Source of the DNA: Anaerolineales bacterium | GTDB lineage: Bacteria > Chloroflexota > Anaerolineae > Anaerolineales > E44-bin32 | Assembly: GCA_041573795.1 (NCBI GenBank) | Contig: JBFFQB010000002.1 | Location: forward strand, 46,749 to 110,748 | Length of the DNA stretch: 64,000 nucleotides | Direction: 5' to 3' | Shown here: positions 19,307 through 36,052 of the stretch, in pieces | Numbering within the stretch: the stretch's first letter is position 1 | Layout of the letters: each line of letters begins with the position of its first letter | Program-made: the position numbers and the translations under genes | The notes under the pieces: model-generated | Databases searched by the model: none | Told to the model about the DNA's origin: nothing | The model's input: the letters and a program-made list of their open reading frames with translations, nothing else

Positions 19307-20676
19307 ATCTTATTGTGGCTATGCGCAACAAGGTCATTCTCTAAATACTGATTAAGATCTTCAAGTGCGCGTTTGGCATGAGCCGCAGCACGCTGCCGGC
19401 GATTTCGTCGAACCCCATCGTCCAACACAGGCAATAAACCCAGGTTTGCTTTCATCGGCTGGAAGGTCTCGGGCTCTGCATGGGAGACATAGTGACAGAG
19501 CGCTCCAAGCATCGTCGTTAAAGGCAACACCATTAAGGGCTCGTTATTAAGCATGCGCACAAGATTTTTCCCGGCGAGCAGCCCAGTGGCAATATTGCCG
19601 AGGTAGCCCTCCACCCCGGTTATTTGACCCGCGAAGTAAAGATCACTGCGATTTCGAAATTGCATTGTGGGATGGAGTAGATCGGGTGCCTTAAGGAAAG
19701 TATTACGATGCATTTGACCATAGCGGAAAAACCGGGCATCTTCTAAACCTGGGATCATCCGCAGTACGCGACGCTGTTCCGCATAGGTCAGATTGGTCTG
19801 GAAACCAACCAGGTTGTAAAGCGAGCCGGCAAGATCATCTTGCCGCAGTTGGACAACTGCGTAGGGGCGCTTCCCGGTCCGGGGATCCTTCAATCCTACA
19901 GGCCTCATCGGTCCATAGGCAAGCGAATCTTCACCGCGCTCTGCAATGATTTCTATCGGAAGACATCCTTCGAAGAACGTGTGGGAACCGGCTTTAACAC
20001 CTGCGTGTATAGCCGCTTCAAACTCGCGCAACGGGATTCTCTCTGCCGACTGAACCTCTCTTACAAAGCGGTAATATTCTTCTTTATTCAGCGGGCAATT
20101 GATGTAATCTCCCTTTTCCATTTCACCGCGGCCATAACGCGAGCTTCGAAACGCTATCGTCATATTGATCGTCTCATACTCAACAATTGGAGCAAGCGCA
20201 TCGAAGAAGAAAAGTTGATCTTCACCGCTCATGAGCTTAAGTGCTTCCGCAAGTGCAGGCGAGGTGAGCGGGCCTGAGGCGACGATACAAGGTCCTTCAG
20301 GTACTTCCAGGACCTCTCCGCGCACAATATTAATGCCTGGGTGGGCATCAAGAAAGCTGGTTACCCTTTGTCCGAATTGCTCCCGATCTACTGCCAGTGC
20401 GCCACCAGCCGGTACTGCAGTCTCTTCAGCGATGCGCAGCAACAATGACCCCATCACCCGAAGCTCGCTCATCAAAATACCCGATGCACGATCGGGTAAT
20501 TTTGACCCAAGAGAGTTAGAACAGACCAATTCAGCGAGTTTATCAGTTTGATGCGCGCCAGTGGCTACGGCTGGTCGCATTTCATAAAGGACGACCTCGT
20601 GCCCAGCTTCAGCCACTTGCCATGCCGCTTCGCTCCCGGCCAACCCGCCCCCGATAATTTTGACCTTGCTGCTCAT
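19303..20676 (-). CDS. trmFO: methylenetetrahydrofolate--tRNA-(uracil-5-)-methyltransferase TrmFO
   Basis: The ORF extends to 20733, but ATG 20676 gives the canonical MSSKVKIIGGGLAGSEAAWQ dinucleotide-binding start. The longer start would run over an intergenic promoter motif. Confidence 0.95.
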   Translation of the reverse strand: MSSKVKIIGGGLAGSEAAWQVAEAGHEVVLYEMRPAVATGAHQTDKLAELVCSNSLGSKLPDRASGILMSELRVMGSLLLRIAEETAVPAGGALAVDREQFGQRVTSFLDAHPGINIVRGEVLEVPEGPCIVASGPLTSPALAEALKLMSGEDQLFFFDALAPIVEYETINMTIAFRSSRYGRGEMEKGDYINCPLNKEEYYRFVREVQSAERIPLREFEAAIHAGVKAGSHTFFEGCLPIEIIAERGEDSLAYGPMRPVGLKDPRTGKRPYAVVQLRQDDLAGSLYNLVGFQTNLTYAEQRRVLRMIPGLEDARFFRYGQMHRNTFLKAPDLLHPTMQFRNRSDLYFAGQITGVEGYLGNIATGLLAGKNLVRMLNNEPLMVLPLTTMLGALCHYVSHAEPETFQPMKANLGLLPVLDDGVRRNRRQRAAAHAKRALEDLNQYLENDLVAHSHNKI

Positions 20677-20701
20677 GTGCGAGATTTTATCATGCTGAAT
20701 T

Positions 20702-20717
20702 TGGCACACATCTTGCA
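20702..20717 (+). promoter_or_regulatory. sigma-54 (-24/-12) promoter P0 upstream of rpoN
   Basis: TGGCACacatcTTGCA, exact match to TGGCAC-N5-TTGCW with GG-N10-GC spacing. It lies in the trmFO/rpoN divergent gap, 52 nt before the rpoN ATG. Confidence 0.7.
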
Positions 20718-20769
20718 ACACCTTTGCTTGCATTTTCGGATCATTGTATACTCACCTGCGAGGCGGAAC

Positions 20770-22182
20770 ATGTATCAATATCAAGATCAATCACTCAGAC
20801 CCCTGACAACGGCACACTTAGCCCAGACCATGAGTCTGCTTGTTCTCTCGAATATTGAGCTTCGAGACCGGGTCATCTCGGAATTATCCTCCAATCCTGC
20901 CTTAGAGCTGCTCGATGAACGAGTTTGCCCAAGCTGCCACAAACCCTTGGGAACAGGCGCGATTTGTCCTGCCTGCAGCCGTCACCAAGATGCTGAAGGC
21001 GATCCAATCGTCTTCCTATCCCCGCGCGATTCAATTCGCCCCTCGCGCAAGCGCCAGTTAGACGATCAGCCGCTTGATCGCGAACCAGCAGCTCCAGAAG
21101 ACCTTACCACCTATGTCATACGCCAATTGGCCGCAGAACTCCTTCCAGAAGATCGGCGCCTGGCACTCTATATCTTGGCGAGCCTTGATGATGACGGTTT
21201 TCTCAATGATCCGCCTGCGCTGATTGCTCAGGCAACTCGCTCGAGCCTAACGCAGGTACAACGCGTGATTGCACTCATCAATTCCGCTGACCCAATCGGG
21301 CTGGCTACCTCTGGACCAAAACAAGCCTTGCTGATTCAGCTCGAACAGCTTGCCGCAGATCACCCGATTGCCGAGTTGGCACGCGACATGCTGACGGAGA
21401 CTTTCGCGGCATTAGGTCGTAGAGAGTATGACAAAATCGGCCATGAGCTTGAGGTCAAACCCGCCAAGGTGCGCCAAGCGGCAGAATTCATCCACGACAA
21501 TCTAAACCCCTACCCTGCGCGTGCCAACTGGGGATCAGGCCACCACCCCATGTCAGGCGATTCGAACGTTTACCATACACCCGATATCATGGTTACTCAC
21601 AATCCCAATACCGAGCAGGGTCCCTTGGTGGTCGAAATCTTTTCCCCGCTTTCGGGTTGGCTACGAGTAAACCCGCTATTCAAACAAGCCATGGACAGCG
21701 CTTCAGCTGACCAAGCTGAGGATTGGTCCGAGCAGCTCGAAAAGGCTAACCTCTTTGTGAAATGCATCCAGCAGCGCAACAATACGATGCGCCGACTCAT
21801 GCAGCTGCTTGTGTCTCAGCAGGAAACGTTCATCCTAGAAGGTGCCCGCCACTTGAAACCCATGACCAGGGCACAGATTGCTGATCAGGTCGGTGTGCAC
21901 GAATCGACGATTTCACGCGCGGTTGCGAATAAATCCGTTGCGCTTCCAGATGGGCGCATCATCCCATTGGCCAAGTTCTTCGACCGAAGCTTGTCTGTCC
22001 GTGACCGGATAAAGGAAATTGTTCGTAACGAAACTAACCCTCTTACCGACGATCAAATCGTTGCGCTCCTGAAAAAGGATGGGGTTAAAATTGCTCGCAG
22101 AACCGTGGCGAAATATCGGTCGATTGAGGGAATCTTACCGGCGCGGTTGCGGGGTGAGCATAAGCTATCCCAAGCAGCATAA
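20770..22182 (+). CDS. rpoN: RNA polymerase sigma-54 factor RpoN
   Basis: Region I LTTAHLAQTMSLLVLSNIELRDRV, C-terminal HTH and RpoN box ARRTVAKYR. The ORF-track start 20548 overlaps trmFO on the other strand; ATG 20770 is preferred. Confidence 0.9.
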   Translation: MYQYQDQSLRPLTTAHLAQTMSLLVLSNIELRDRVISELSSNPALELLDERVCPSCHKPLGTGAICPACSRHQDAEGDPIVFLSPRDSIRPSRKRQLDDQPLDREPAAPEDLTTYVIRQLAAELLPEDRRLALYILASLDDDGFLNDPPALIAQATRSSLTQVQRVIALINSADPIGLATSGPKQALLIQLEQLAADHPIAELARDMLTETFAALGRREYDKIGHELEVKPAKVRQAAEFIHDNLNPYPARANWGSGHHPMSGDSNVYHTPDIMVTHNPNTEQGPLVVEIFSPLSGWLRVNPLFKQAMDSASADQAEDWSEQLEKANLFVKCIQQRNNTMRRLMQLLVSQQETFILEGARHLKPMTRAQIADQVGVHESTISRAVANKSVALPDGRIIPLAKFFDRSLSVRDRIKEIVRNETNPLTDDQIVALLKKDGVKIARRTVAKYRSIEGILPARLRGEHKLSQAA

Positions 22183-22196
22183 GTAAAGGTAGATCA

Positions 22197-24158
22197 TTGG
22201 CGAGAGATACAACACCCACAAATCCGATCGCACGCTTTTTTAAATCAGAGCCGCATCGTGAACTGTTCGACACACTTGCGGATACGCTCGACAGCGCCGT
22301 CCTGGTTCTCTCCGGGACGGAGCCGCGTTTAATAACCTGCAATCACCAGTTTCTGCTGATGACTGGTTTCGCCCGCAAGGACGTTGAATCACTCTCTCCT
22401 TCTGATCTCTTTACAGAAGTTGAAGGACAGGCTGCCCTCGATAAAATCCTGCAACCCTGGGATACGCCCGATTGTCAGCTGAATGAAGTTCCCATCCGAA
22501 CCCAATCAGGCGAGTTGCTTTGGATCGACCTTCAGGCTTTCTCGGTCACGCCCTCTCATGAGGTTGTCCTCGTACTTTCAAGACCATCGCAAGAACGGGT
22601 GAGTAGTGAAGCACATCAACGCGCAGAAGCTGAGCGCATGTCTTTACTTATGGAAATATCGGATCTTGCCATCGAGAGCGGCGCCGCCACGTTAACTCTG
22701 CTCCTTGAGCAAATCAAGAAACTCCTTTCAGCAAGCTTTGCAGGCATGTATCAGGTTGATCCGAGTTCGCCAGCCTATACATTGGTCGGTACTCTACCCC
22801 CCGCTTTCCCGGAGCAAGTCGACGACAGCGTAATCGGAACCTTACCCAGGCATTCGCGCTGGTCGATTGGACATCGCCCGGAGCATGAGCTCGCCCGTGC
22901 CGCACGCGCAGCTGAGGTCCGTCATCTTCGCACAACCCGAATTGGTGACGAAAGCTCGTGGGTAGGCCTTCTGGTCGTCTGTTGGGATGAGGAGCTCACC
23001 GAAGGGGAAGATATCGAAACCATCATGCAAGTCGCAACAAATTTATGCCACGCCGCGCTGCATGTCGGCCTTCTGCGTTCCAGCACAACTGAGAGCGAAC
23101 TTGTGCTCAATCAGCTTGAGGATCAGATTGAGCATCTTTACGAAGGAATTTCAGACACACTGCTAATCGTAGATTCAGAATTATCCATCATGCGAGCGAA
23201 CGCAGCTCTCGAACGCCTGCTCGGTTTCTCTGCTGAAGAAGTCATCAATCGTCCAGTCCAGGATATCTTGGTAGGACCTGAAGATGTTACGGTGACACTT
23301 TTAGATGCGCTCGGCCATCAACGCGAATCGGAACGATCGAAGCTTGTGCTGCACCATCGCGAGGGAAATCCTTTGCCAATACACCTGCGCGCAGTGCCCT
23401 TAGAGATGGCAGGTGAGACCCAACTGCTCCTCGTCCTCAAGGATCAATCGGAGCAACAAGCGATCGAAGATCAGACAGAAAGTCTGGCGCAGCGGGCCCT
23501 CCTGGGTGAGGTCACTGCTATATTCGCGCATGAAGTTCGCAATCCTATCAATAATATCTCGACTGGCGTTCAACTCATCGCTTCCCGCCTGGGACAGGAT
23601 CATCCGCAATATGAAGCCCTCGATCGCATTCGTACGGAATGCACTCGCTTAGATCAGCTGATGAGCGATGTCCTCTTCTTCGCCCGTCCGTTAGAATTGA
23701 AAATGGAAGAGATCGACCTATCCGAGATGATGGATCGTATCCTGGCTCGTTGGACACCACGTTTTCAACAATCGAAAGTTCGCTGCCAAACCATCTTCCA
23801 AAAGGAGCTTCCGCCTGCATCTGTTGATCCCCGAACGTTCGAGCGCGTACTCGTCAACTTGATCAGTAATGCCCTTGAAGCTATGGCTGATGGGGGTACA
23901 ATCTCCATTTCAATTGGGTTTGCTGAAGAGGGTCCTAAAGATCAGCTGGAGTTAAAGGTCGCCGATACGGGTCCGGGGATCCCGGCAGATAAGATTCAAC
24001 GGATCTTCGACCCCTTCTTCACAACCAAGAAGGATGGCACAGGACTTGGTCTTGCTATTAGCCGTCGGATCATGACTGCTCATCGTGGCACCATTCAGGT
24101 CGAATCATTTCCTGATGCCGGCACGGTTTTCACGATCCATATTCCTGTAGCAGCGTAA
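22197..24158 (+). CDS. soluble multi-PAS sensor histidine kinase (NtrB-like)
   Basis: No TM segments; PAS-like blocks; H-box FAHEVRNPINNI; N/G boxes NLISNALEAM, DTGPGIP, GTGLGLAISR; 14 nt after rpoN. Confidence 0.85.
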   Translation: MARDTTPTNPIARFFKSEPHRELFDTLADTLDSAVLVLSGTEPRLITCNHQFLLMTGFARKDVESLSPSDLFTEVEGQAALDKILQPWDTPDCQLNEVPIRTQSGELLWIDLQAFSVTPSHEVVLVLSRPSQERVSSEAHQRAEAERMSLLMEISDLAIESGAATLTLLLEQIKKLLSASFAGMYQVDPSSPAYTLVGTLPPAFPEQVDDSVIGTLPRHSRWSIGHRPEHELARAARAAEVRHLRTTRIGDESSWVGLLVVCWDEELTEGEDIETIMQVATNLCHAALHVGLLRSSTTESELVLNQLEDQIEHLYEGISDTLLIVDSELSIMRANAALERLLGFSAEEVINRPVQDILVGPEDVTVTLLDALGHQRESERSKLVLHHREGNPLPIHLRAVPLEMAGETQLLLVLKDQSEQQAIEDQTESLAQRALLGEVTAIFAHEVRNPINNISTGVQLIASRLGQDHPQYEALDRIRTECTRLDQLMSDVLFFARPLELKMEEIDLSEMMDRILARWTPRFQQSKVRCQTIFQKELPPASVDPRTFERVLVNLISNALEAMADGGTISISIGFAEEGPKDQLELKVADTGPGIPADKIQRIFDPFFTTKKDGTGLGLAISRRIMTAHRGTIQVESFPDAGTVFTIHIPVAA

Positions 24159-24172
24159 TTCAGGAGAATTTA

Positions 24173-25441
24173 ATGAGTGCGACAGTATTAATCGTCGATG
24201 ACGAAGCACCGGCCAGAAATTTTATTAGCGAGGCTTTAAGTGACGCTGGCTATGAAGCCATTGAGGCGGGGTCCTTAAAAGAGGCCAATAAAGTTATTGA
24301 CACCGGAGCAGCCGATATCATCCTGCTGGATGTCATGTTACCGGATGGCTCTGGGTTGACCCTGCTTGACCGCATATCCATGGAATCCCCTCGCCCGCCA
24401 GTGATCCTGATCACCGCATTCGGTGAGGTTGATACAGCAGTAGAGGCGATGAAGAAGGGTGCTCAGGATTTTCTCCAGAAGCCACTCGATCTCGAGCGAC
24501 TGCAACAAGCAGTCGAGCGATCGTCAGAGGTCGTCTCCCTGCGAAGGGAACTTGATTTACTGCGCCGCTCTTCCACCGGTGATATCGAAATGGTTGTAGG
24601 CGAAACTTCGACGATGAAACAAATTATGCTTGAGGCAGAGAGAGCCGCCTCGGCTGCTGTCTCCGTTCTCATCACCGGTGAAACAGGGACAGGAAAAGAG
24701 GTATTAGCTCGTACGATCCACAGTATAAGCCCGCGCGCCGATAAACCCTTTATCCCCATTAACTGCGCCGCCCTACCGGACACGATGATTGAATCTGAGC
24801 TCTTTGGTCATGAGGCCGGAGCGTTTACAGGAGCACAAAAGCGCAAGCCGGGATTAATCGAAATCGCCGACGGCGGCATTCTTTTCCTGGACGAGATCTC
24901 TTCTACGAGACCTGAAATGCAAGCAAAGCTCCTGCGTGTTCTCGATGAACATAAGTTCCGTCGGGTGGGTGGTGTCAATGAAATTGATGTCGATGTCCAG
25001 ATCCTGGCGGCCTCCAACCGCGATCTTCCCGCCATGATCGGGGAGGGTACTTTCAGGGAGGATCTCTACTACCGCCTTAAGGTCGTTGACCTGCATCTTG
25101 TACCTTTACGCCAGCGCATTAATGACATACCCGCGCTGGTGGGTAACTTTATCCGTCAAATCAACCTCCGTATAGGCGGGATGGTAGAAGGGATCACACC
25201 CCGGGCGATCGATGCACTTAAAGCCCATTCTTGGCCTGGAAACATCCGCGAACTCCGGCATGTCATTGAACGGGCTATATTATTCTGTGATGAGGATATG
25301 ATTGACTTGCCTCATCTACCCCCAGATATCCAGGCGCTTGGAGAGAAACTTTCTTCGCCCACGCAAACCTCCAAGAAGCAAAGCACCGTAAAAAAGACCA
25401 GTGCAACAAAGAAGAAGACAAAGTCCAAGAAGAAATCCTAA
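24173..25441 (+). CDS. sigma-54-dependent response regulator (REC + AAA+ sigma-54 interaction domain) without recognisable C-terminal HTH
   Basis: REC (VLIVDDE...IILLDVMLPDGSG); Walker A GETGTGKE; GAFTGA loop; Walker B ILFLDEI; ESELFGHE. The C-terminus is a Lys/Ser/Thr-rich tail (KKQSTVKKTSATKKKTKSKKKS) instead of a Fis-type HTH. Confidence 0.9.
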   Translation: MSATVLIVDDEAPARNFISEALSDAGYEAIEAGSLKEANKVIDTGAADIILLDVMLPDGSGLTLLDRISMESPRPPVILITAFGEVDTAVEAMKKGAQDFLQKPLDLERLQQAVERSSEVVSLRRELDLLRRSSTGDIEMVVGETSTMKQIMLEAERAASAAVSVLITGETGTGKEVLARTIHSISPRADKPFIPINCAALPDTMIESELFGHEAGAFTGAQKRKPGLIEIADGGILFLDEISSTRPEMQAKLLRVLDEHKFRRVGGVNEIDVDVQILAASNRDLPAMIGEGTFREDLYYRLKVVDLHLVPLRQRINDIPALVGNFIRQINLRIGGMVEGITPRAIDALKAHSWPGNIRELRHVIERAILFCDEDMIDLPHLPPDIQALGEKLSSPTQTSKKQSTVKKTSATKKKTKSKKKS

Positions 25442-25449
25442 GCGCATAA

Positions 25450-25465
25450 TGGCATAGTCCTTGCA
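25450..25465 (+). promoter_or_regulatory. sigma-54 (-24/-12) promoter P1
   Basis: TGGCATagtccTTGCA with GG-N10-GC spacing; 9 nt after the EBP stop and 38 nt before ATG 25504 (GGAGG RBS in between). Confidence 0.65.
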
Positions 25466-25503
25466 ACATTCGCCTTCAGAAGTAATTCACTCTGGAGGCG
25501 AAC

Positions 25504-25836
25504 ATGATTCCCCTATCCTTTAACGATATTCAACTCATAATTGCGGCCTCAATATTCGTGCTGGGTTTCCTGCTGATCTTGATTGGCGCCCTCGTGATGG
25601 TCAGCAGAAGTTACTCTCGCGAAGTTCGGACATTGGCCGCACATACTGCCCGTCTTGGCCAGAAAGGCATTGCACAAGATATCACCGGCCTGGTAAATAG
25701 TGCGACGGAACTGGTTGCCTCCATCAATGCCTTGGTACGGACTGCCAGTGGGATCGGGCTGTTTTTGATCCTGCTGGGCATCACCATGCTTGCAGCCGCT
25801 TATTGGATCATTCAACAAATTCCTTGGACCATCTAA
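25504..25836 (+). CDS. small membrane protein (110 aa, two TM helices flanking a ~50-aa loop)
   Basis: GGAGG RBS; hydrophobic segments IIAASIFVLGFLLILIGALVMV and GIGLFLILLGITMLAAAYWII; first gene after P1. Confidence 0.6.
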   Translation: MIPLSFNDIQLIIAASIFVLGFLLILIGALVMVSRSYSREVRTLAAHTARLGQKGIAQDITGLVNSATELVASINALVRTASGIGLFLILLGITMLAAAYWIIQQIPWTI

Positions 25837-25855: not shown

Positions 25856-28800
25856 ATGCTCAATGACGCCGCCATCCTCGCACAATTGAAAGAAGCATTC
25901 CAGCCTTCGGAGCTAAGCGCTACTATCACCCGCCTTCAGCGTGTTCCGGAAGTTTGGCAAGCGCTACATGACGGGGATTTTCTCCGCTTCGTGCTCGAAC
26001 ATCCAGAAGAGATCGAATGGACACCCAGCGCAATCGCCGATAGCTGTCTTCTCTATAAACGAGCCAATCAATCTGGAAGCGAGGATTCTTCGTCAAGCCA
26101 TTCGACACAGGCTGTATCAAATCTATTTGATCTGGCGACCGAGGCTCACAGCTTAGCGAAACAACTTAATCATTCGATCGCAGATACGCTGGAGACTCTA
26201 CAACCATCTAGATCGTGTTTCAGCCAGCTTTGCTGTGCCTGGGCGCATATTGATGAAACCTCCAAGGTGATAGAGCAGATCTTAGCCGCACAAGATCGTC
26301 AGATGACCGCCTTTTTGCTGGAAGTCCTTCGCGCCCAGTATGCAGATGCGCAGATACTTGAGATCGTCGAAACCCATGGCCCTGCGTTTGCTCACTATAT
26401 CCCTGAACTGCTGAAAGATGGAGAGAAGGAGATTGCACTCCTGTTGGCTGATCAAGTAAAGGATGATTTATCCGGGTCCTCAACCGGAGATGAGGCATTG
26501 CTGTATGCCTATGCGCAGGCAGTGGGCGGTGACTATGAGGGAGCTCATATCTCCCTTTCCTCTGCCTGGGATAACGCGACAGAAGCTACGGCATTGGTGG
26601 CCGATCAGTTAGCACAGGTCGCACGTCTTGAAGGCAATCCTTCTGTGGAGCTAGAAGCCCGGCGCCAGGCTGTCGAGAGAAGCTTTTCCCCGATCCGGCG
26701 AGCAGCGCTTGCTCGCTCGCTGGTTGAATCTGACCAGGCATATAACGCCTACCAACTGACTTCTCAGGCAGAGAGCATCGAAGAGCGGATAGCTTTCGGT
26801 ATGGCAGCCTTGAAGCAAGGCTTTCACAGCGAAGCATTGAGTGCCTTATCGCAGGTAAAGAATGAAGCGCTGCAGCTCGAGTACAAAGATACTTCCTGGC
26901 TACGTTGGATGGCTGAAGGCTTGAGCAGAAGCGGGGCGCTTGCAGATACGATAGAAACCACAACGTATATCGCCAGACTTTTGCCCCAGGATGAAAACAT
27001 CGCCCTGGAGCTAGCGGAGCTTCTCGAGCGAGCTGGAGATTTATCGGCGGCCGTAACTCAGGCTGAGTTCGCCCTTGCACTGAACCCACAATCAACAAAT
27101 GCTCGCAGAGTTTTAGCGCATACGCTGCGCCTCGATGGTCAAGCGGCAAAAGCTCTCGGATATTTCGAGCAAGTCGTGCAAGATGATCCATCCGTACACT
27201 TCGAGTACTGTGAATGTGCCCTAGAAGCGCAGGAGGATGATCTCGCCGTGGAAATCGCTACAACCCTGATGGGTGAGCATCCAGATTCTGCCATGGCGCA
27301 TTCCTTTTTCGCCCGAGCCAAACATCACCAAGGGGAACACGAAGTGGCGCGAGCCGCCATCGAGAAGGCCATCACCCTCGATAAGAGCAGTGTAGATCCC
27401 TGGCTGGTTCTCGCCGAAATCCTTGTAGCTACCGGCGAAAACGATGCTGCCGGTGAAACGCTGCTTCAGGCCATCCAGATTGCGCCAGAGAATGCCAAGG
27501 CACATCAAGCGCGCGCAGACTGGCTCGCTGCCCAAGATCGTTTCCATGAAGCGCGCGAGCATAGTGCCAGAGCGGTCGAGTTAGATCCAGGTTGCGCATC
27601 ATGGCTCGTCGCTGATGCCAGACTGCTGGCCAAGACCGGTGATCCTCAAGGTGCCCGTGCACGTTTGCAGCAAGCTTACGCGTTACAGCCAAAGAATTGG
27701 GACCTCATTCTTGAACTGGCCCGCAGTTATGAGTCATCTGGCGAGCTCGAGCAAGCTGTTCAGCTCATCGGAGACGCTCCTGGTGAGTTCGATGATGCCT
27801 TCCGCATTGATACTGGTCGCATTTTGATTAAGGCGGGGGTTGATGGAAACACCGAAGCTTTGCAAAAAGGCTTAGACCATTTCAAGCGGGCTCATCCCGA
27901 TGGGGAAACCCTACCGGATCATCTTTTCTGGTCAGCCCGCGCGAATGAGGTTCTGAAAGAATACAACAAATCACTTGGGCAGTACGAAGAATACCTGGCA
28001 CAGTTCGAAGGGCTTAAGCAGCACCGTACGCTCGAGGCGGTTCTGGGTTACTCCCGTGTTTCTTTAGCCCAGGGTAAGCCGGACCAGGTCATCGCTTTCC
28101 TCCAAGCCAATCGAGACAAGTTCCCGGCATCGATCGATGTGGTCAGCCTGCTCGCAGAAGCACAGCTCGCCAATGGCGAGGGGAAACAAGCCTATGAGAC
28201 TGCTAGAGAAGCGATCGCATTGAATCCTGTTTCAGTGGATGCCCATAGGCTCGTGAGCAAGACAGCTGAAGCGATAGGAGACATCCGTACTGCCATCGAT
28301 GCGGAGCAGGAGATTCTCTCTCAACAGCCGGAAACTGGCGCGAATTGGCGCCGCATGGCCCGATTGCACTTCAGCATTAGGGATACCGCCTCAGCCCGTG
28401 CGCACTTGGCTAAAGCAATCCATCTCGATCGCAGCGATGCGAAGTCTCTGGTCGAGCTTGCAGATTTAAGTGCCGAGTTTGATCTCAGCGGCACGGAGCT
28501 ACGCTTGATGAAACGTGCTGGAAAATTAGCACCCAGGGATCCAGGGCTACAGCTTCAGCTCGCTGAAGTGGCTGAGAGCTCGGGCGATTTTGATACTGCT
28601 TACGCAGCATTGATGTGCTGCCTTCAAGAGAAGAATGATGACGTGCAGTTGGTGAAACGAGCTGCAGAAGTGAGCTCTAAGGCCGGGCAGTCAGGACGAT
28701 CAATCGAGCTTTATGAACGCGTCCTGGAGAAAGATCCCGAAGATGCCGTAAGCCTTGTGGCACTAGCTGATACCTTCGAACAAATGGGAGATCCTCGGGC

Positions 28801-30928
28801 AAGTTTGAAGTATTACCAGCAATTGCTTGATCTCGCTACAGAGGAACCTGCGATCCTGGCCAAGATCGCCAGGGCATATCTTGATTTTGAGGATGCAGGT
28901 AAGGCACGCTCGATTATTGAAAGAGCTGTACATCTTCACCCCGATCATGTTGGTATTCAACTTGTTCAGGTCGAAGCATCCCTTCAGGCTGGCGATGACG
29001 AAAAAGCGCTGGAGATTGTAGAAAAAGTCATCGCGCAGTCCGCTCCTGACGCTCACACCCTGGCCCTGGCGGCCTTATGTGCCGTCATGACCGGTGACAT
29101 TGAGCAGGCCAGGGCTGGACTCGATGAAGCACTCCACGAAACCCACTTATCCTCCCAGGCATCGGCGGTCCTTTTGCGAGTTTGCGCCGCTTTGGGTGAA
29201 TGGCGGCTTTACTCCTCGCTGCTGAATGGCATTAGCGGGCTAGCTAAATCATCAGTAAAAGACGCAAGGTTGGCATTGAGGGCACTCCTGCGTGCACGTG
29301 ATTTAGCTTGGCTCCATACAAATTTATTGAACATTCGGGTGAATACGCCCGATGCAAAGGCAACGCAAGCTCGGATAGACAGCCTGTTTCAAGGTATTCC
29401 CACCGACGCGCGATTCATGAATTCGGCCTTCGAGATATTCGACCGATGGCAAATTCAACTCGAAAGCCCTATGTCTGAATTTGATGCCACCTTCGATCAA
29501 CTTTCCCACACCGAGCAGCAGGAGCTCATCCAGGCTGCGGCGATGGGGTTGATCAAAGCCAATCGCCCTTCCAAAGCACTCAGCTTATTGGATTCTCATC
29601 CACCGCTTGGCACCCAGCGGGGCTATCATGCGCTGTTGACAAGCATAGCGGCTCAGCAAGCAGATCAGCCCGCACGGGCAAAAGACTCTGCTGAACGAGC
29701 AACACGCTTTGCCGAGACGCGCCCAAGTGGTTCCTATCTCCTGGGTTCCCAGGCTCACGCAGAATCCGATATGGAGAGCGCAATTACTGCCATTAACGCC
29801 GCCTTGGCAATATGGTCAAATGAGCCCGCATGGCATGCTGATCTCGCTCGCATCTACATGCTTGGTGAGCGCAAGGAAGCCGCCCTTCCACACTTACAGC
29901 AAGCTGTTGAGCTGGATCCGCATGATTCCGAGTATCTGCTCGCACTTGCCCGAGCATACCGCAATGCCGGTGAATGGTCTCAAGCCGAAACAACGTATGC
30001 GCGCTGTTTGCAGGATTCACCATCAGCAGCACAGGTTTGGAAAGAAGCGGCCCAAGTTGCTTTAGTTAATGGGAATGCTTCCCAGGCCGAAAGCTGGTTT
30101 GAAAGAGCCTGCAGTTTGGCGCCCTCCGATGCTGTCTGCCTGATGGGATCGGCACAAGCTGCCCTACTTATGGATCAACCAAAACTGGCTGCCGATCGCG
30201 CCCAAAGCGCATACAAGCTTGCTCCAAATGAACCACAAGTTCTGGCTGGCTTCGCCGAGGTATTGGCAGTGCAAGGAAAAATGGAGAAGGCTATCCAGGC
30301 CTATGATCGAGCGTTGAAGATCTCCGGGGGAGATCCCCAAGTTCAGCTAGCGCGGAGCAGATTATTGCTGAAGAGTGGCCAGTATACCGATGCCATCAAT
30401 GACATTAATGCTGTCATTGCTACAGATGATTCTGATACCGACGCCTGGGCTCTACTAGCGGAAGCATATGAGCAGGCTTCACAAATGGACGAGGCACTCA
30501 ACGCAATCAATCACGCCATCGCAGATTCACCTCGTTCTGGCCCATACCGCCTGATCCAAGGACGAATGTATCGTAAGGCTGGTCAGCTGGATCAGGCCTT
30601 AAAAGTCTTGCGCGAGCTTGAGAATGACGAGCCCGACAACGGCTCACTACCTGCAGAACTTGGGAACGTCTATGAAGCCCGCAGAGAGACGGATGCGGCG
30701 CTTGAAGCCTACCTACGGGCAGTTGCACTCAATCCTGACGATATTCAATCCCACATGAGCGCTGGGATCATTTTAAAGGGCTTGAAATCCTACGAGCATG
30801 CCGCGCAGATGTTTGAACGCGTGGTCACAGCTCGACCTAACGACCCTAAAGCCTTACACCAACTCGCTGCGGTACGTGCATTGCAACTTGTACATGGTGG
30901 CATCGAGACCCAGGTGGTGACGACATGA
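25856..30928 (+). CDS. giant tetratricopeptide-repeat (TPR) protein, 1690 aa
   Basis: Uninterrupted ORF. From ~aa 300 onward there are dozens of 34-aa TPR-like units (recurring A..Y..AL.L.P....A...LA). The N-terminal ~230 aa are non-repetitive. Confidence 0.85.
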   Translation: MLNDAAILAQLKEAFQPSELSATITRLQRVPEVWQALHDGDFLRFVLEHPEEIEWTPSAIADSCLLYKRANQSGSEDSSSSHSTQAVSNLFDLATEAHSLAKQLNHSIADTLETLQPSRSCFSQLCCAWAHIDETSKVIEQILAAQDRQMTAFLLEVLRAQYADAQILEIVETHGPAFAHYIPELLKDGEKEIALLLADQVKDDLSGSSTGDEALLYAYAQAVGGDYEGAHISLSSAWDNATEATALVADQLAQVARLEGNPSVELEARRQAVERSFSPIRRAALARSLVESDQAYNAYQLTSQAESIEERIAFGMAALKQGFHSEALSALSQVKNEALQLEYKDTSWLRWMAEGLSRSGALADTIETTTYIARLLPQDENIALELAELLERAGDLSAAVTQAEFALALNPQSTNARRVLAHTLRLDGQAAKALGYFEQVVQDDPSVHFEYCECALEAQEDDLAVEIATTLMGEHPDSAMAHSFFARAKHHQGEHEVARAAIEKAITLDKSSVDPWLVLAEILVATGENDAAGETLLQAIQIAPENAKAHQARADWLAAQDRFHEAREHSARAVELDPGCASWLVADARLLAKTGDPQGARARLQQAYALQPKNWDLILELARSYESSGELEQAVQLIGDAPGEFDDAFRIDTGRILIKAGVDGNTEALQKGLDHFKRAHPDGETLPDHLFWSARANEVLKEYNKSLGQYEEYLAQFEGLKQHRTLEAVLGYSRVSLAQGKPDQVIAFLQANRDKFPASIDVVSLLAEAQLANGEGKQAYETAREAIALNPVSVDAHRLVSKTAEAIGDIRTAIDAEQEILSQQPETGANWRRMARLHFSIRDTASARAHLAKAIHLDRSDAKSLVELADLSAEFDLSGTELRLMKRAGKLAPRDPGLQLQLAEVAESSGDFDTAYAALMCCLQEKNDDVQLVKRAAEVSSKAGQSGRSIELYERVLEKDPEDAVSLVALADTFEQMGDPRASLKYYQQLLDLATEEPAILAKIARAYLDFEDAGKARSIIERAVHLHPDHVGIQLVQVEASLQAGDDEKALEIVEKVIAQSAPDAHTLALAALCAVMTGDIEQARAGLDEALHETHLSSQASAVLLRVCAALGEWRLYSSLLNGISGLAKSSVKDARLALRALLRARDLAWLHTNLLNIRVNTPDAKATQARIDSLFQGIPTDARFMNSAFEIFDRWQIQLESPMSEFDATFDQLSHTEQQELIQAAAMGLIKANRPSKALSLLDSHPPLGTQRGYHALLTSIAAQQADQPARAKDSAERATRFAETRPSGSYLLGSQAHAESDMESAITAINAALAIWSNEPAWHADLARIYMLGERKEAALPHLQQAVELDPHDSEYLLALARAYRNAGEWSQAETTYARCLQDSPSAAQVWKEAAQVALVNGNASQAESWFERACSLAPSDAVCLMGSAQAALLMDQPKLAADRAQSAYKLAPNEPQVLAGFAEVLAVQGKMEKAIQAYDRALKISGGDPQVQLARSRLLLKSGQYTDAINDINAVIATDDSDTDAWALLAEAYEQASQMDEALNAINHAIADSPRSGPYRLIQGRMYRKAGQLDQALKVLRELENDEPDNGSLPAELGNVYEARRETDAALEAYLRAVALNPDDIQSHMSAGIILKGLKSYEHAAQMFERVVTARPNDPKALHQLAAVRALQLVHGGIETQVVTT

Positions 30929-33588
30929 TTGACCGCAGTACTTTCATCAAAATCCTTCACACATCCCTGAGCGCAGGTAGATCAGATTTCGCACGGTTCA
31001 CCGCAATGGACTGGCTTGAAGCCTGGCCTGGGGATGCGAGCATACAGACCTACCTGGCCCGGGCCGAGATGGAATTGGGCTTGATTGACAATGCGATTGC
31101 GCGAGTTGATCAAGTCATCATGGTCGATCCAGAACAAATCGATGCCTATGAGATCAAGGCGAGCGCCTTACGATCGAAGGGCGCGATCGAGCAATCCAGG
31201 ATCTATCATGCTTGTGCACAGATCTTAAAAATGAATCCGCTCGAACCAGGTCAAGCACCTACATGGGCGGTCCATTTGCAGGAAGCCATGGGGCATGTTC
31301 GAGCAGCTGACTATGACGCGGCGGTAGCAAAAGCCTCGATCTCCCTTACCGCCGATCCTCAGTTAATCCTGCCGACCTATTCCTTGATGTCAATTCAGCG
31401 CACAGCTGGGAAAGATGCTGATGCCCTTGCGGTGGCGCAAAATGGCTATGACCGTTGGCCTGAATGTGTCGCTTTCTTGCTGATTCTTGGTCAATCGTTA
31501 GTCGACCAGGGTGAGTCGCAAGCGGGGATCGAACTCCTGCATCATGCAGCAAAGAACGATCCCAGTGGTCAAATTACGAAGCGCTTCTGGGGGGAACATC
31601 ATGCCTATGCTGATTTATGGCCATTGAACTTGCAAGCTGAGTTGAGTAGGCCCATCCCTGCCGATGTTGCTACAAGGCTCGGTGATAATCAGCTGGCTGG
31701 ATCGATTCGGGAGAAAAGCCCCCAGCCCGAGCCCAAACCCACAGCGTGTGACTGTGACACTCATACGATCGTAAAGAAAGATGATCAAGTAGCACCCGAG
31801 CGTAAGCAGCAGGCCAAAATAAACCTGGAAGCTCTACCTTCACCGAAACCCTGGGAAGCTTTTAAAGGACCGAATGCAAGTGAAGCTGGCATTAATCTCA
31901 ACCCAACCCAGGTGCCTGAGACTTTGGTAGAGATCGAGAATGAGTTCAGGCAACTTGCTCAAAGATTAAACGCAAGGAAAAGGGGCAGGGATGAAGATGG
32001 TCGCTCCCCAGCTTATATCGTTCTGTCGAGCCGCTCACATATGCTACAGCGCTTCGAAGAAGCTGGCTTCCAATCCATTGATGAACGTATATTGAGCCTG
32101 GTTGAAAGTGTTCGTCGGCGCTATGGTTGGACAGCATACCGGATCTATATTGATGATCCCAGGACACTCGAACCCTTCGGGCTGTCTCCTGTCGATCCAG
32201 GCAACGCCTGGCAAATCAAGCTGCGTCTGGCCGACCTCGATCGGGCCCTAAGCGCACGGGGCGAGATGATCGGAGCACTATTGATCGTCGGTGGAAACGG
32301 CATCATCCCATTTCACCTGTTACCCAACCCAACCGATGATGACGATGAAGTCATCCCCTCGGATAATCCTTATGCCACTACGGATGAAAATTACTTCATC
32401 CCGGAATGGCCTGTGGGGCGTCTCCCCGGTGAGGAAGAATCGGAGTTTATTCTCCAGCAGTTGGACTATGCTCTCAAAAGCCACAATATCCAGGCTGCAC
32501 CCAGACCAACGATTGGACGCTTGTTCCGACTCCTGGGGTTTGGATTTCTCCGCATGCTCGCACCAAGCGTGAAGACGCTTGGCTATTCCGCCAGTATTTG
32601 GCGCAAATCTTCCTTCGCCGTATTCAAGACGATTGGGGATCCCAAGAACCTGATCACCTCTCCACCGATTGAAGCAACAAAGCTGCCTTCCGAGGCGATG
32701 CGACCGGTGCGACTATCCTATTTCAATTTGCATGGACTGGAGGACGCGCCTGAATGGTATGGGCAACGTGATCCTGCAAAAGACCACGAAGCCATAACGG
32801 AATTTCCCATCGCGCTCCGCCCAATCGATGTTGTTAACAGCGGTCGAGCGCCCAAGGTCGTGTTTACGGAGGCCTGTTACGGAGCGAATAGTATCGGTAA
32901 AACGAGTGAAACCGCATTAAGCTTAAAATTTCTAACCTCCGGGAGCCGGGCTGTTATTGGTTCAACCAAGATCTCCTATGGATCAATCCGACCTCCCCTT
33001 ATCGCGGCTGATCTTCTGGGTCAGCTCTTCTGGCAATTTCTCAATCAGCGCCTGCCTGTGGGTGAGGCACTTCGCCGAGCCAAGATCAAACTGGCAACCG
33101 AAATGCACCAACGACAGGGGTATCTCGACGGGGAAGATCAGAAGACTTTGATTTCGTTTGTTCTATATGGAGATCCTCTCTTCCAACCCAACCCATCAAA
33201 CCCGCATCCAGGGGAAAAGTCGGTCATTCGTCGGGTCAAGCGACCCTCCAATATGAAAACGGCTTGCGCCCTTGGTGGTAAGTCCATCTCTGAAGATGAG
33301 ATTTCCCCGGTGACAATGAAACGGATTGAACACCTCGTTGCCCAATACCTGCCGGGAATGCAGGAAGCTGTGTGCAGCATTCACAATCAGCACATAGAAT
33401 GCCGCGGCGGCGATCATGTTTGCCTTTCCCAGCAGTTCGATCAGAAGTCGATTCAACAGTCACCGGTTGGTTCCATGGTTATTACCCTTTCGAAGCATAT
33501 TGCTGATGGCCAACGACGGCATCCGCATTTTGCCCGTCTTACCCTGGATTCCCAGGGTAAGGTCATGAAGCTGGCTGTTTCGCGCTAA
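30925..33588 (+). CDS. TPR domain + peptidase C25-like (gingipain-like, clan CD) cysteine protease domain + C-terminal PepSY-like module
   Basis: ATGA overlap with the upstream TPR gene. C25-like block LLIVGGNGIIPF...SDNPYATTDENYFIPEWPVGRLPGEE. Candidate catalytic His in FNLHGLEDAPEWYG (CAT 32731-32733) and Cys in VVFTEACYGAN (TGT 32875-32877). Confidence 0.65.
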   Translation: MIDRSTFIKILHTSLSAGRSDFARFTAMDWLEAWPGDASIQTYLARAEMELGLIDNAIARVDQVIMVDPEQIDAYEIKASALRSKGAIEQSRIYHACAQILKMNPLEPGQAPTWAVHLQEAMGHVRAADYDAAVAKASISLTADPQLILPTYSLMSIQRTAGKDADALAVAQNGYDRWPECVAFLLILGQSLVDQGESQAGIELLHHAAKNDPSGQITKRFWGEHHAYADLWPLNLQAELSRPIPADVATRLGDNQLAGSIREKSPQPEPKPTACDCDTHTIVKKDDQVAPERKQQAKINLEALPSPKPWEAFKGPNASEAGINLNPTQVPETLVEIENEFRQLAQRLNARKRGRDEDGRSPAYIVLSSRSHMLQRFEEAGFQSIDERILSLVESVRRRYGWTAYRIYIDDPRTLEPFGLSPVDPGNAWQIKLRLADLDRALSARGEMIGALLIVGGNGIIPFHLLPNPTDDDDEVIPSDNPYATTDENYFIPEWPVGRLPGEEESEFILQQLDYALKSHNIQAAPRPTIGRLFRLLGFGFLRMLAPSVKTLGYSASIWRKSSFAVFKTIGDPKNLITSPPIEATKLPSEAMRPVRLSYFNLHGLEDAPEWYGQRDPAKDHEAITEFPIALRPIDVVNSGRAPKVVFTEACYGANSIGKTSETALSLKFLTSGSRAVIGSTKISYGSIRPPLIAADLLGQLFWQFLNQRLPVGEALRRAKIKLATEMHQRQGYLDGEDQKTLISFVLYGDPLFQPNPSNPHPGEKSVIRRVKRPSNMKTACALGGKSISEDEISPVTMKRIEHLVAQYLPGMQEAVCSIHNQHIECRGGDHVCLSQQFDQKSIQQSPVGSMVITLSKHIADGQRRHPHFARLTLDSQGKVMKLAVSR

Positions 33589-33603
33589 GCCACGAGAGGG
33601 GCA

Positions 33604-33619
33604 TGGCACGCAACTTGCA
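33604..33619 (+). promoter_or_regulatory. sigma-54 (-24/-12) promoter P2 upstream of orf426-ftsZ
   Basis: TGGCACgcaacTTGCA, exact consensus with GG-N10-GC spacing. It lies in the 57-nt gap after the protease gene, 26 nt before ATG 33646 (GAAGGA RBS). Confidence 0.75.
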
Positions 33620-33645
33620 CCATAGTTGCGAGAAGGAAAATTGCC

Positions 33646-34926
33646 ATGTCCCTCAGCCAGCAACAACTCGGTTTTCACTATTATCCCGATACAGATCACT
33701 ATAGTGATTCAGATTTAAACACCTGGCTCCCGATACTCGAGAGTGCCGGCGCTAGCTGGTTGACGCTGCAGGCAAAGGGGAGCAAGAACATCCCTGAGCA
33801 CTTCCTTGCTGCGCTCAAGGCAAGTGGCATTCAGCCGATCATTCATATTTGCGAACCGATTGGATCATTGCGTATGGCGCAGGTCTACACAGCCTTAAAG
33901 ACCTACGCCGATGCCGGTGTCAATTACGTGCTCTTTTACGATCGACCGAATATGCGGGCATCATGGCCCGCATCCACCTGGAGCCATGAATCTTTGATAA
34001 GTCGCTACGTGGATGGCCTGCTTCCGATACTGGAGGCACAGCTCGAGATGGGCATGCTGCCAACCTTACCCCCGCTCGAGCCTGGAGGCGATTACTGGGA
34101 TACTGCCTTTCTGGAGTCCCTCCTCGCTCTGATGCAAAAAAGTGTCGATGCAGCGATTATGGACAAGCTCACGCTCTCGATCTACATGTGGACGTATGGC
34201 AGACCAGTCGATTGGGGACAAGGTGGACAGGTAGCCTGGCCTGATGCCCGGCCGTATCGTTCCCCTATGGGCTCCCAGGATCAGCGTGGCTTCCAGATTA
34301 ATGAGTGGTACCAAGAAATCGCACGGAAAATTCTCGGACGCACCTTACCGGTACTGGTTGTGGGGGGAGGCGCGGGTCCATCGGAAGCTTACGCCACCAC
34401 AGAAGCGCGACAGCTTGGCAACAACGAGGTCGCCCGTCATCTGGCGCAAGAAGGGCTTCCAGAGGAGATCCTCAATTTCAACTTTTACCCCCTTGCCACA
34501 GCCGAAAATCACCAGGATTATCCTGCTGCTTGGTATATCGCCCCCGTCGAAAAAGTCGTGCCCGACCCGTCCGATGAGCACGCGGTAGTCGCTCCCTTAG
34601 AAGCGCAGGCTCAAAAGAAGGGCATTGAGCACTATGTGCTTTTAGGATTTAGCAACCGGATGAACGGCCTTGATGTTTGGAATGCCATTGCCCCTCCGAT
34701 TATGAGTACTCGGGCGACTGTCGGTTTTTCGCTTGAAGAAGCCAAGCAAGCTGTTCGTGTGAGCATCGTTGGCGATTACGATACATTCCCGGCAATGATC
34801 GAAGATCAACTGAGAGCAAACGGCACAGAAACTGAACGCTTTGAAAAGTGGGACACGGATGAATTCCTACTTGCTGCCTCTACCTGGGCAACAAAGTCCA
34901 CGGCAACAGGAGTCGAAGATGAGTGA
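33646..34926 (+). CDS. hypothetical protein (426 aa), possibly a TIM-barrel glycosidase-like fold; translationally coupled to ftsZ
   Basis: Clean ORF behind P2. Alternating beta/alpha-like pattern (GFHYYP, WLTLQA, QPIIHI, NYVLFYDRPN, LPVLVVGGG). Its stop overlaps the ftsZ start by 8 nt (ATGAGTGA). Confidence 0.65.
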   Translation: MSLSQQQLGFHYYPDTDHYSDSDLNTWLPILESAGASWLTLQAKGSKNIPEHFLAALKASGIQPIIHICEPIGSLRMAQVYTALKTYADAGVNYVLFYDRPNMRASWPASTWSHESLISRYVDGLLPILEAQLEMGMLPTLPPLEPGGDYWDTAFLESLLALMQKSVDAAIMDKLTLSIYMWTYGRPVDWGQGGQVAWPDARPYRSPMGSQDQRGFQINEWYQEIARKILGRTLPVLVVGGGAGPSEAYATTEARQLGNNEVARHLAQEGLPEEILNFNFYPLATAENHQDYPAAWYIAPVEKVVPDPSDEHAVVAPLEAQAQKKGIEHYVLLGFSNRMNGLDVWNAIAPPIMSTRATVGFSLEEAKQAVRVSIVGDYDTFPAMIEDQLRANGTETERFEKWDTDEFLLAASTWATKSTATGVEDE

Positions 34927-36052
34927 AATGGGTACCTACGAACCTCTAGATTTTGCCTACCCTCCCAAGGAGCCCGCACGCGCCCTGGGCGAGGCCAAGA
35001 TTAAAGTTCTCGGACTCGGCGGTGGAGGCTCAAATGCGATCAATCGCATGATCGAGCTTGGTGTCGCTGGTGTCGATTTCATCGCCGCCAACACCGATCG
35101 ACAGGCGCTCGCATCCAGTCTGGCACCGGTCCGCCTCCAACTCGGGCCGCGCATCACCAGAGGATTGGGCGCTGGCGGTAATCCAAAGACCGGGGCTGCC
35201 GCAGCAATGGAGAGCAGCCGTGAAATCGCCAGCGCGCTTGCCGGTGCTGACATGGTATTCATCACGGCCGGCATGGGCGGCGGAACCGGTACAGGATCAG
35301 CGGCTATCGCTGCGGAGATCGCCCGTGAAATCGGGGCGGTTGTCGTAGCTGTGGTCACGATGCCATTCAGTTTTGAGATGAGCAAACGAGCTAAAAACGC
35401 TTTTGAGGGGGTCAAGCAGCTTCAACCCCATACGCATACGTTAATTACCGTGCCGAATGATAAGCTACTCCAGATTGTTCCACGCGACTTAAGCCTCGAA
35501 ATCGCCTTCCGACTGGCGGATGACGTCCTTCGCCAGGGGGTACAGGGTATCGCTGAATTGATCACCCGCCCCGGCATGATTAACGTCGACTTTGCCCATG
35601 TGCGTGAGCTCATGCTGCGAGGCGGCGGCGCCTATATGGCCATTGGTCTCGGGAAAGGTGAGGACAAAGCCAATGCTGCCGTTCATCAAGCCCTACACCA
35701 CCCCCTCCTCGAAATGGACAGCATCGACACCGCCAGCGGCGTCCTGGTGCATTTCACAGGCGGTGAGGATCTTACCCTTTATGAAGTCGGTGATGCCGTG
35801 ACGAATTTACGGCAATCGCTTTCCCCGGATGCGGACGTGATCCTGGGCGCTACCACGCAAAAATCGATGAATGGGCGGGCTCAAGCAATCTTGATCTTCA
35901 CCGGTGTTGGTGGCCGTCCGATGACATCAGCGGTGGCGGCTGAGGCTCAAGTCGAGCTCGAGGCGGTGGCAGCCCCCGTGATGCAAGCGTCGCAAGATCT
36001 GGATCTACCGACTTTCCTAAGACGTAGGGTCTCGACCGGGTCAGGGGGTTAA
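34919..36052 (+). CDS. ftsZ: cell division GTPase FtsZ
   Basis: IKVLGLGGGGSNAINRM, tubulin signature GGGTGTGSAAIAAEIA, T7 loop NVDFAHV, C-terminal peptide DLDLPTFLRRR. The ORF opens at 34841, but ATG 34919 has an AGGAG RBS and the canonical N-terminus. Confidence 0.95.
   Translation: MSEMGTYEPLDFAYPPKEPARALGEAKIKVLGLGGGGSNAINRMIELGVAGVDFIAANTDRQALASSLAPVRLQLGPRITRGLGAGGNPKTGAAAAMESSREIASALAGADMVFITAGMGGGTGTGSAAIAAEIAREIGAVVVAVVTMPFSFEMSKRAKNAFEGVKQLQPHTHTLITVPNDKLLQIVPRDLSLEIAFRLADDVLRQGVQGIAELITRPGMINVDFAHVRELMLRGGGAYMAIGLGKGEDKANAAVHQALHHPLLEMDSIDTASGVLVHFTGGEDLTLYEVGDAVTNLRQSLSPDADVILGATTQKSMNGRAQAILIFTGVGGRPMTSAVAAEAQVELEAVAAPVMQASQDLDLPTFLRRRVSTGSGG

Follow-up and report, generated by a model that had tools for sequence, protein, structure and literature searches.

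Transcription by sigma-54 is the bacterial model for enhancer-dependent activation. Its canonical activators bind 100-150 bp upstream of the promoter and need DNA looping (PMC7057263). How, then, would a sigma-54 promoter be activated that lies almost directly behind the gene of its own presumed activator, when that activator ends without a DNA-binding domain? The question is raised by a 64-kb stretch of Anaerolineales (Chloroflexota) DNA, referred to here as the window, in which a promoter designated P1 separates the gene of an enhancer-binding protein (EBP) from a small downstream gene. The answer considered likely is that P1 belongs to a self-contained sigma-54 cassette, in which an activator free of DNA binding would work from solution and a leader hairpin would gate the translation of read-through RNA.

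The census of EBPs and promoters covers these 64 kb. For comparison, a scan of species-representative genomes for the EBP returned 44 syntenic loci, all from metagenome-assembled genomes of Anaerolineales/Anaerolineae (Chloroflexota), with EBP identities of 57%-93%; the alignment used below, A1, contains 43 sequences, the window counted in.

P1 and its presumed activator

24173..25441, + strand: EBP, with receiver domain (D53), AAA+ domain (GAFTGA), and lid, and no helix-turn-helix (HTH) (Pfam, NCBIfam, PDB)
25450..25465, + strand: sigma-54 promoter P1, TGGCATAGTCCTTGCA, with GG 25451-25452 as -24 and GC 25463-25464 as -12 (exact motif, position weight matrix, conservation)
25475..25480, + strand: predicted transcription start zone, +1 = 25476, with conserved purines AGA at 25478-25480 (-24/-12 geometry)
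25504..25836, + strand: small gene, 110 aa, with two hydrophobic segments, predicted to be the first gene driven by P1 (translation)

The EBP gene ends with TAA at 25439-25441, eight nucleotides intervene, and the P1 motif begins at the ninth nucleotide past the stop. It ends 38 nt before ATG 25504, which has GGAGG at 25494-25498, exactly as the original prediction had placed it. Between the GG and GC of P1 lie 10 nt, the spacing canonical for -24/-12 elements, and the motif fits the TGGCAC-N5-TTGCW consensus. Exact matches to TGGCAY-N5-TTGCA number three in the 64 kb (at 20702, 25450, and 33604) against 0.15 expected, and all three are on the + strand, intergenic, and within one 13-kb sigma-54 gene cluster. 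A position weight matrix (PWM) trained solely on the orthologous sites of other genomes, with those of the window left out, scores them at 25.1, 27.5, and 24.3 bits, respectively; the next-best match in the window reaches 11.3 bits.

In 44/44 orthologous loci, the motif separates the EBP gene from the small gene. TGGCA, TTGCA, and GGAGG are invariant across A1 (n = 43), and the 12 nt preceding the motif are unconserved. In a promoter-anchored profile, both boxes carry 1.8 bits per position, with a mean of 0.2 bit and a maximum of 0.7 over -220 to -21. Among orthologues, the distance from TGGC to ATG is held at 50-56 nt, and that from the EBP stop to P1 ranges from 1 to 242 nt; because the former is fixed and the latter variable, P1 goes with the small gene. 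The earlier claim that no intergenic room exists upstream of P1 is therefore true of the window and of the usual case (≤23 nt in 34/43), but the tight fit is not obligatory.

Judged by this conservation, P1 is a real and conserved promoter, not a chance match, and 25450-25465 would function as a sigma-54 promoter with the start site predicted above and a presumed dependence on this EBP. It is scarcely credible that the motif is a coincidence or relic and that read-through from the EBP gene simply accounts for downstream expression. The layout does make co-transcription plausible, with 8 nt from stop to motif and neither a terminator-like nor a sigma-70-like site at the junction (25441-25504). 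A relic, however, would hardly keep invariant boxes between unconserved flanks in 43 sequences, nor stay with the small gene where the spacer grows to 95-242 nt; the excess of exact matches and the wide gap in PWM score speak against coincidence, and read-through RNA is predicted to bury the ribosome-binding site (RBS) of the small gene, as described below.

In the EBP, Pfam recognises a receiver domain at residues 5-115, Sigma54_activat at 142-307 (PF00158, E = 3e-68), and AAA_lid_14 at 313-392, but no HTH_8. The sequence has the Walker A (GETGTGKE) and Walker B (LFLDEI) motifs, the GAFTGA loop, and the receiver Asp. The best PDB matches are 1ny5 and 4l4u (E = 1e-100), and the best NCBIfam match is AtoC. 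Alignments with NCBIfam and PDB entries end about 50-60 residues before the end of NtrC-type full-length models, and Aquifex NtrC1 (4l4u) is aligned no further than the end of its AAA+ lid, at residue 398 of 447. All 44 syntenic orthologues (389-397 aa) stop right behind this lid, and PF02954 (HTH_8) occurs in 0 of the 120 closest database homologues; the absence of an HTH noted in the original prediction thus extends to these orthologues and homologues. From its domain content, the EBP is an activator by its ATPase domain, yet no enhancer binder. Several of the 120 HTH-less homologues carry public names such as 'DNA-binding NtrC family response regulator' or 'sigma-54-dependent Fis family transcriptional regulator'. 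Carried over from full-length relatives, these names mislead when applied to an HTH-less family, a systematic mis-annotation that is flagged here.

The EBP of the window ends in a 30-aa Lys/Ser/Thr-rich tail (encoded at 25350-25438), shared solely with its closest relative, L001; other orthologues have 0-6 lysines at the C terminus. The tail was considered as a cryptic DNA-binding element and rejected as a conserved feature, given its confinement to these two sequences. The DNA coding for it puts an A-rich tract just upstream of P1.

Two routes to activation had been proposed for this layout: either the EBP coding sequence harbours an enhancer, or the activator works without binding DNA. Searches for the first were negative. 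Four-fold-degenerate-site entropy, computed over 40 orthologues, is 1.63-1.79 bits in the last ~130 EBP codons versus a gene mean of 1.62, and synonymous-site constraint was seen nowhere along the gene in this set. The 3' end of the EBP gene, where a search for inverted repeats had been suggested, holds none in 25150-25468, the sole repeat in 25150-25520 being the leader hairpin, and no conserved column was found at a fixed distance upstream of P1 (-220 to -21). An embedded enhancer was rejected on these three grounds. A positioned upstream site is also implausible, because the stop-to-P1 spacing varies while the ATG spacing is fixed. The second route is favoured because the HTH is missing, no sign of an embedded enhancer was seen, and the spacer is variable; from the sequences, activation of P1 without DNA binding is therefore better supported than an embedded enhancer.

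P1 could also be genuine but conventionally activated: by another, DNA-binding EBP, from a site within the EBP gene or downstream of P1, or through a hetero-oligomer partner that bears the DNA-binding domain. FleT reportedly works in such a manner, as a hetero-oligomer with FleQ. FleT, devoid of a DNA-binding domain, is listed in class Ic (PMC3162934), and canonical activator sites 100-150 bp upstream (PMC7057263) would fall within the EBP coding sequence, a location that is physically feasible. Conventional activation is nevertheless distinctly unlikely in view of the flat synonymous-site profile, the missing upstream column and dyad, and the spacing of 1-242 nt behind the coding sequence. 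In addition, no second EBP is encoded in the 64-kb window, and all three promoters have a sigma factor, kinase, and activator of their own beside them.

The leader hairpin and read-through RNA

25469..25480, + strand: left arm of the leader hairpin, TTCGCCTTCAGA, with the anti-Shine-Dalgarno (anti-SD) sequence CCUUC at 25473-25477 astride the predicted start (inverted repeat, covariation, position)
25491..25502, + strand: right arm, TCTGGAGGCGAA, which holds the Shine-Dalgarno (SD) sequence GGAGG at 25494-25498 (inverted repeat, covariation)

The original prediction had raised read-through from the EBP gene as an alternative source of downstream expression. The conserved anti-SD hairpin, which bears directly on this alternative, had been overlooked. 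In A1 (n = 43), 78.6% of cells in the 12-bp leader helix are paired, versus 38%-48% after a shift of the partner by 1-3 columns, and 27 cells show compensatory double changes, a figure matched by 0/500 shuffles. The outer pairs alternate among UA, AU, GC, and CG, and many U.G pairs are valid solely as + strand RNA. These counts were made pair by pair, as RNAalifold on A1 caught just part of the helix, its consensus being weakened by indels in the loop. Covariance models from Rfam gave only chance-level matches in 25300-25700 (E above 3).

The anti-SD also keeps its place relative to the promoter. With the C of the GC doublet taken as -12, the canonical -24/-12 geometry (PMC7057263) puts the P1 start at 25476. 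The anti-SD then lies at -3 to +2 (index 23-27 from the T of TGGCA) in 36-37 of the 43 sequences; elsewhere, it is one position upstream in four, farther upstream in two, and downstream in none. At least four of the five SD bases are paired with upstream bases in 41/43 sequences, and variation in leader length is taken up wholly by the hairpin loop. Because the anti-SD sits astride the predicted start, RNA started at P1 would be without most or all of it, whereas EBP read-through RNA, with no terminator and an 8-nt spacer, would carry the whole hairpin and so be poorly translated.

Folding agrees with this division. The cost of exposing positions -15 to +5 around the start codon (RBS opening energy, given as medians) is 8.9 kcal/mol for RNA from the predicted P1 start, 16.6 for read-through RNA, and 11.2 for read-through RNA with the upstream part shuffled; the read-through value is above 95% of shuffles in 27/43 sequences. 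On covariation, position, and folding, the leader hairpin probably restricts translation to P1-initiated transcripts. Translational coupling as the purpose of the hairpin was rejected on geometry: the left arm begins 28 nt past the stop codon, or ~20 nt in the tightest orthologues, and 20-28 nt is, by our own estimate, beyond the reach of a terminating ribosome.

The same 12-nt inverted repeat (25469-25502) overlaps the predicted start and might, on that account, be a palindromic operator at which a dimeric repressor binds the DNA. This is very improbable, since the arms covary rather than hold one sequence, one arm is the SD itself, the arm spacing varies by up to 8 nt, and the many U.G pairs leave the arms complementary only as + strand RNA.

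A weightier objection is that the hairpin is real but no gate. It would then form the 3' end of the transcript of rpoN, the histidine kinase gene, and the EBP gene (as a terminator without U-tract, a pause site, or a 3' stabiliser), or act as a general damper of small-gene translation. The stem is stable and GC-rich (median -17 kcal/mol) and lies right behind the EBP gene with no other terminator between, and the hairpin is kept in loci that have a separate, terminator-like hairpin upstream. Against a 3' end stands the missing U-tract: behind the stem come N3-5 and then ATGATTCC in the A1 sequences (GAACATGATTCC in the window), and the hairpin was not recognised as an intrinsic terminator. The objection as a whole is judged unlikely, because the partner is always the SD, with the anti-SD held at -3 to +2 and indels absorbed by the loop, and because the two other sigma-54 promoters of the cluster behave as a gate would predict.

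20702..20717, + strand: sigma-54 promoter of rpoN, TGGCACACATCTTGCA (exact motif match, PWM 25.1 bits)
33604..33619, + strand: third sigma-54 promoter, TGGCACGCAACTTGCA, 15 nt after the stop codon at 33586-33588 and ahead of ATG 33646 (exact motif, PWM)
33596..33654, + strand: predicted 13-bp helix of read-through RNA only, in which GAGGGGCAUGGCA (33596-33608) pairs with UGCCAUGUCCCUC (33642-33654) and covers the start codon at 33646 (folding)

The rpoN promoter can be used as an internal control, because its upstream neighbour is divergent and no co-directional read-through reaches it. There, the effect is absent: opening the RBS costs 6.8 kcal/mol in RNA from the predicted start, 8.8 in read-through RNA, and 9.5 in shuffled RNA (medians), with only 1/18 above 95% of shuffles. 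The third promoter, ahead of the gene for a 426-aa protein, was compared among 78 metagenomic loci with homologues of that protein (36%-45% identity). A GG-N10-GC motif is present upstream of the homologue in 69/78 of these, and the promoter begins ≤19 nt past the upstream stop in 53/57 scorable loci. Its median RBS opening energies are 4.8 kcal/mol from the predicted start, 11.0 for read-through, and 8.1 for shuffled RNA, and 23/43 are above 95% of shuffles.

The means by which the third promoter would hide its RBS differ from those at P1. In the window, read-through RNA folds at -34.8 kcal/mol versus -2.8 for RNA from the predicted start, and in the 33596-33654 helix, GAGGGGCAUGGCA comprises the spacer plus the -24 box, so that the helix uses the -24 box itself. 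Other lineages place an anti-SD immediately ahead of the -24 box, and still others have it after the -12 box but before the predicted start. Thus, unrelated sequences upstream of the predicted start pair with the SD or start codon, differing by lineage, which is hard to square with a hairpin that has no gating role. Such varied solutions point to RBS occlusion as the selected property. Translational coupling is possible at this promoter, where the helix begins 8 nt past the stop. By extension, the sigma-54 promoters of this Chloroflexota lineage might double as translational switches, each placed behind a co-directional gene without terminator or enhancer and furnished with an anti-RBS sequence within it or just upstream of it, a generalisation that could as readily prove wrong as right.

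Several points weigh against activation from solution coupled to a translational gate. The view is restricted to 64 kb, and a DNA-binding EBP or partner may lie elsewhere in the genome. Were the start 3-4 nt upstream of ~25476-25480, the anti-SD would be inside the P1 transcript, and even a start at 25476 leaves ~9 kcal/mol of residual pairing to be opened at the RBS. The hairpin is kept, though weaker, in loci with an apparent terminator between the EBP gene and P1. Finally, the sequences share phylogeny, and the shuffle and Mann-Whitney statistics therefore overstate their independence.

The weakening of the hairpin with distance can be put in figures: where the spacer between the EBP gene and P1 is long, anti-SD hairpins have a median of -13.4 versus -17.1 kcal/mol (p ~0.01, uncorrected for phylogeny). 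Five such loci (L007, L008, L020, L022, and L025) have 120-240-nt spacers with strong GC-rich hairpins, some of them then followed by T-runs (CCTGGCG...CGCCAGGTTTTTTT in L007); spacer hairpins with T-runs are likely terminators.

The cassette as a proposed circuit and its known relatives

20724..20752, + strand: housekeeping-type promoter-like element, TTGCTT-N17-TATACT, between the sigma-54 promoter and the rpoN start codon (aligned loci)
20770..22182, + strand: rpoN (sigma-54), 470 aa, start ATG 20770 (Pfam Sigma54_AID/CBD/DBD, NCBIfam TIGR02395)
22197..24158, + strand: PAS histidine kinase, presumed partner of the EBP, start codon uncertain (Pfam PAS, HisKA, HATPase_c; syntenic in 41 loci)

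The genes of the cassette follow one another on the + strand in the order rpoN, PAS histidine kinase, EBP, P1, small gene, TPR (tetratricopeptide repeat) gene, TPR/C25-like gene, third promoter, 426-aa gene, and ftsZ. The synteny from rpoN through kinase, EBP, and small gene to the TPR gene is kept in every locus whose contig extends far enough. The rpoN gene itself lies 3.3 kb upstream of P1 and encodes region I, a core-binding domain, an HTH, and the RpoN box ARRTVAKYR (Pfam and translation). Its sigma-54 promoter stands at about -3470 from the EBP start in all loci reaching there, with some CGGCAC and TGGTAT variants, and implies positive autoregulation of the operon of rpoN, kinase, and EBP. 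Downstream of it, TTGCnn ... TGTATACT is present in nearly all aligned rpoN upstream regions; from its sequence, TTGCTT-N17-TATACT would be a sigma-A promoter. The tandem elements suggest basal expression by a housekeeping sigma factor combined with auto-activation by sigma-54.

The circuit proposed from domain content, promoter conservation, and precedent would run as follows. The sigma-54 holoenzyme would form a closed complex on P1. Once the PAS kinase sensed its signal, the EBP receiver would become phosphorylated; the EBP would then assemble and remodel closed complexes from solution at all three promoters, with no upstream activator sequence, a mode of action described for Helicobacter FlgR and proposed for Chlamydia CtcC. 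At the rpoN promoter, positive feedback would lift sigma-54, kinase, and activator together, with the TTGCnn-N17-TATACT element downstream supplying the basal sigma-54 to start the loop. P1 and the third promoter would switch on the genes for the small protein, the TPR proteins, and the peptidase, and the 426-aa gene with ftsZ, respectively. Read-through RNA would meanwhile be held translationally quiet by anti-RBS sequences embedded in the promoters, as covariation, position, and folding suggest, and P1-initiated RNA would be translatable. A weaker possibility is that the specificity of the activator comes from genomic proximity, the protein being made beside its only targets.

Natural enhancer-free sigma-54 systems are, to our knowledge, few (FlgR, CtcC, and FleT), and the cases studied all belong to Proteobacteria, Campylobacterota, or Chlamydiota. 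EBPs without a DNA-binding domain, such as Chlamydia CtcC, Helicobacter FlgR, and Rhodobacter FleT, have been classed as type Ic, which makes up ~4% of EBPs overall, and the same 2011 survey found sigma-54 in only some members of the Chloroflexi (PMC3162934). Sequence comparison thus places P1 and its activator in a known class of enhancer-independent systems, for which the phylum is new.

Helicobacter pylori FlgS/FlgR is similar in joining a receiver and AAA+ domain without a DNA-binding domain, histidine-kinase control, and promoters that need no upstream activator sequence. The present system differs in its phylum, in the absence of flagellar genes (the targets being a small membrane protein, TPR proteins, a C25-like peptidase, and an ftsZ-linked gene), and in its organisation, as activator, kinase, and sigma factor share one operon that adjoins the target promoters; enhancer independence is here inferred. 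Chlamydia CtcC is likewise a receiver and ATPase without a DNA-binding domain, is closest to AtoC (PMC7482065), as is the EBP described here, and has a paired kinase. CtcB/CtcC also resembles the cassette in a regulon rich in envelope and membrane proteins. Its target genes are unrelated, however, and in the window, rpoN is in the same operon with a sigma-54 promoter of its own; the literature searched contained no report of promoter-embedded anti-SD elements in Chlamydia. Aquifex aeolicus NtrC1 and Escherichia coli AtoC/ZraR are the best matches for receiver, AAA+ domain, and lid, with GAFTGA, the Walker motifs, and the receiver Asp in common, but their C terminus is a Fis-type HTH with which they bind upstream sites, whereas the EBP stops at the equivalent of ~398 of 447 in NtrC1.

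For the hairpin, the nearest parallel is the mobile element IS10/Tn10, whose transposase is shielded from external promoters by sequestration of the RBS (Davis, Simons & Kleckner 1985, Cell 43:379; cited in PMC13181058). Transcripts entering this element from upstream reportedly bring along additional 5' sequence complementary to the RBS, so that only RNA from the element's own promoter is translated. The geometry of P1 fits this scheme, with the anti-SD upstream of or astride the predicted start and the SD downstream. In the window, by contrast, the promoters are sigma-54 promoters in a chromosomal cluster rather than in a mobile element, the anti-SD overlaps the promoter at -3 to +2, and the arrangement is predicted from sequence, covariation, and folding. 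The anti-SD astride a promoter start thus appears to be a new version of a known insulation principle; searches of the literature turned up neither a report of anti-SD elements at sigma-54 or internal promoters nor an account of a sigma-54 regulon in Chloroflexi.

The locus adds a large, conserved, and probably enhancer-free family from uncultured Anaerolineales (Chloroflexota) and has a clean architecture: sigma factor, kinase, and DNA-binding-free activator lie in one operon, predicted to be auto-activated, with at least two target promoters abutting the preceding genes. A promoter-embedded anti-SD would offer a simple means of shielding an internal promoter from read-through with no terminator required, which is relevant to compact operons and to parts for synthetic biology. 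If the proposal is true, an operon-internal promoter would gain a true OFF state in this way, and a compact cassette could be controlled gene by gene.

Predicted target genes and neighbours

25856..30928, + strand: 1690-aa TPR-repeat protein, with its own SD, AAGGGG (Pfam, junction sequence)
30925..33588, + strand: 887-aa protein with N-terminal TPR repeats and a peptidase-C25-like (gingipain-like, clan CD) domain (partial match to Pfam PF01364)
33646..34926, + strand: 426-aa protein of no assigned family, overlapping ftsZ (translation)
34919..36052, + strand: ftsZ, from ATG 34919 to 36052, its start overlapping the 426-aa gene (TIGR00065)

The 110-aa protein predicted to be the first product of P1 has no match in Pfam or NCBIfam and is kept in 43 loci at 33%-93% identity. 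The 426-aa protein has no match in Pfam, NCBIfam, or PDB; as its gene overlaps ftsZ, the latter may be partly under sigma-54 control. Together, the TPR proteins, the C25-like peptidase, and the ftsZ-adjacent gene hint that filamentous Anaerolineae may use the cassette to control a programme related to the envelope or to division. Reading the 887-aa protein by eye brings out a candidate catalytic HG/ACYG dyad (..NLHGLED.., ..TEACYGA..) and a conserved C terminus, ..KLAVSR, that ends just before the third promoter.

In the sigma-54 protein, the poorly conserved region II contains a four-cysteine, zinc-ribbon-like insertion, CPSC...CPAC, at residues 53-68 (20926-20973). On the other side of the rpoN promoter, the divergent neighbour on the - strand (20674-20695) is a GIDA-family (TrmFO/Gid-like) gene, whose most likely start is 20676 (MSSKVKIIGGGLAG) rather than 20733, the start in the open reading frame list. 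A conserved block, GATTYTAWCAYGC, reads TGATAAAAT on the minus strand and forms an extended -10-like element ~7 nt from the GIDA-family start codon, which suggests that the mRNA of this gene may be leaderless.

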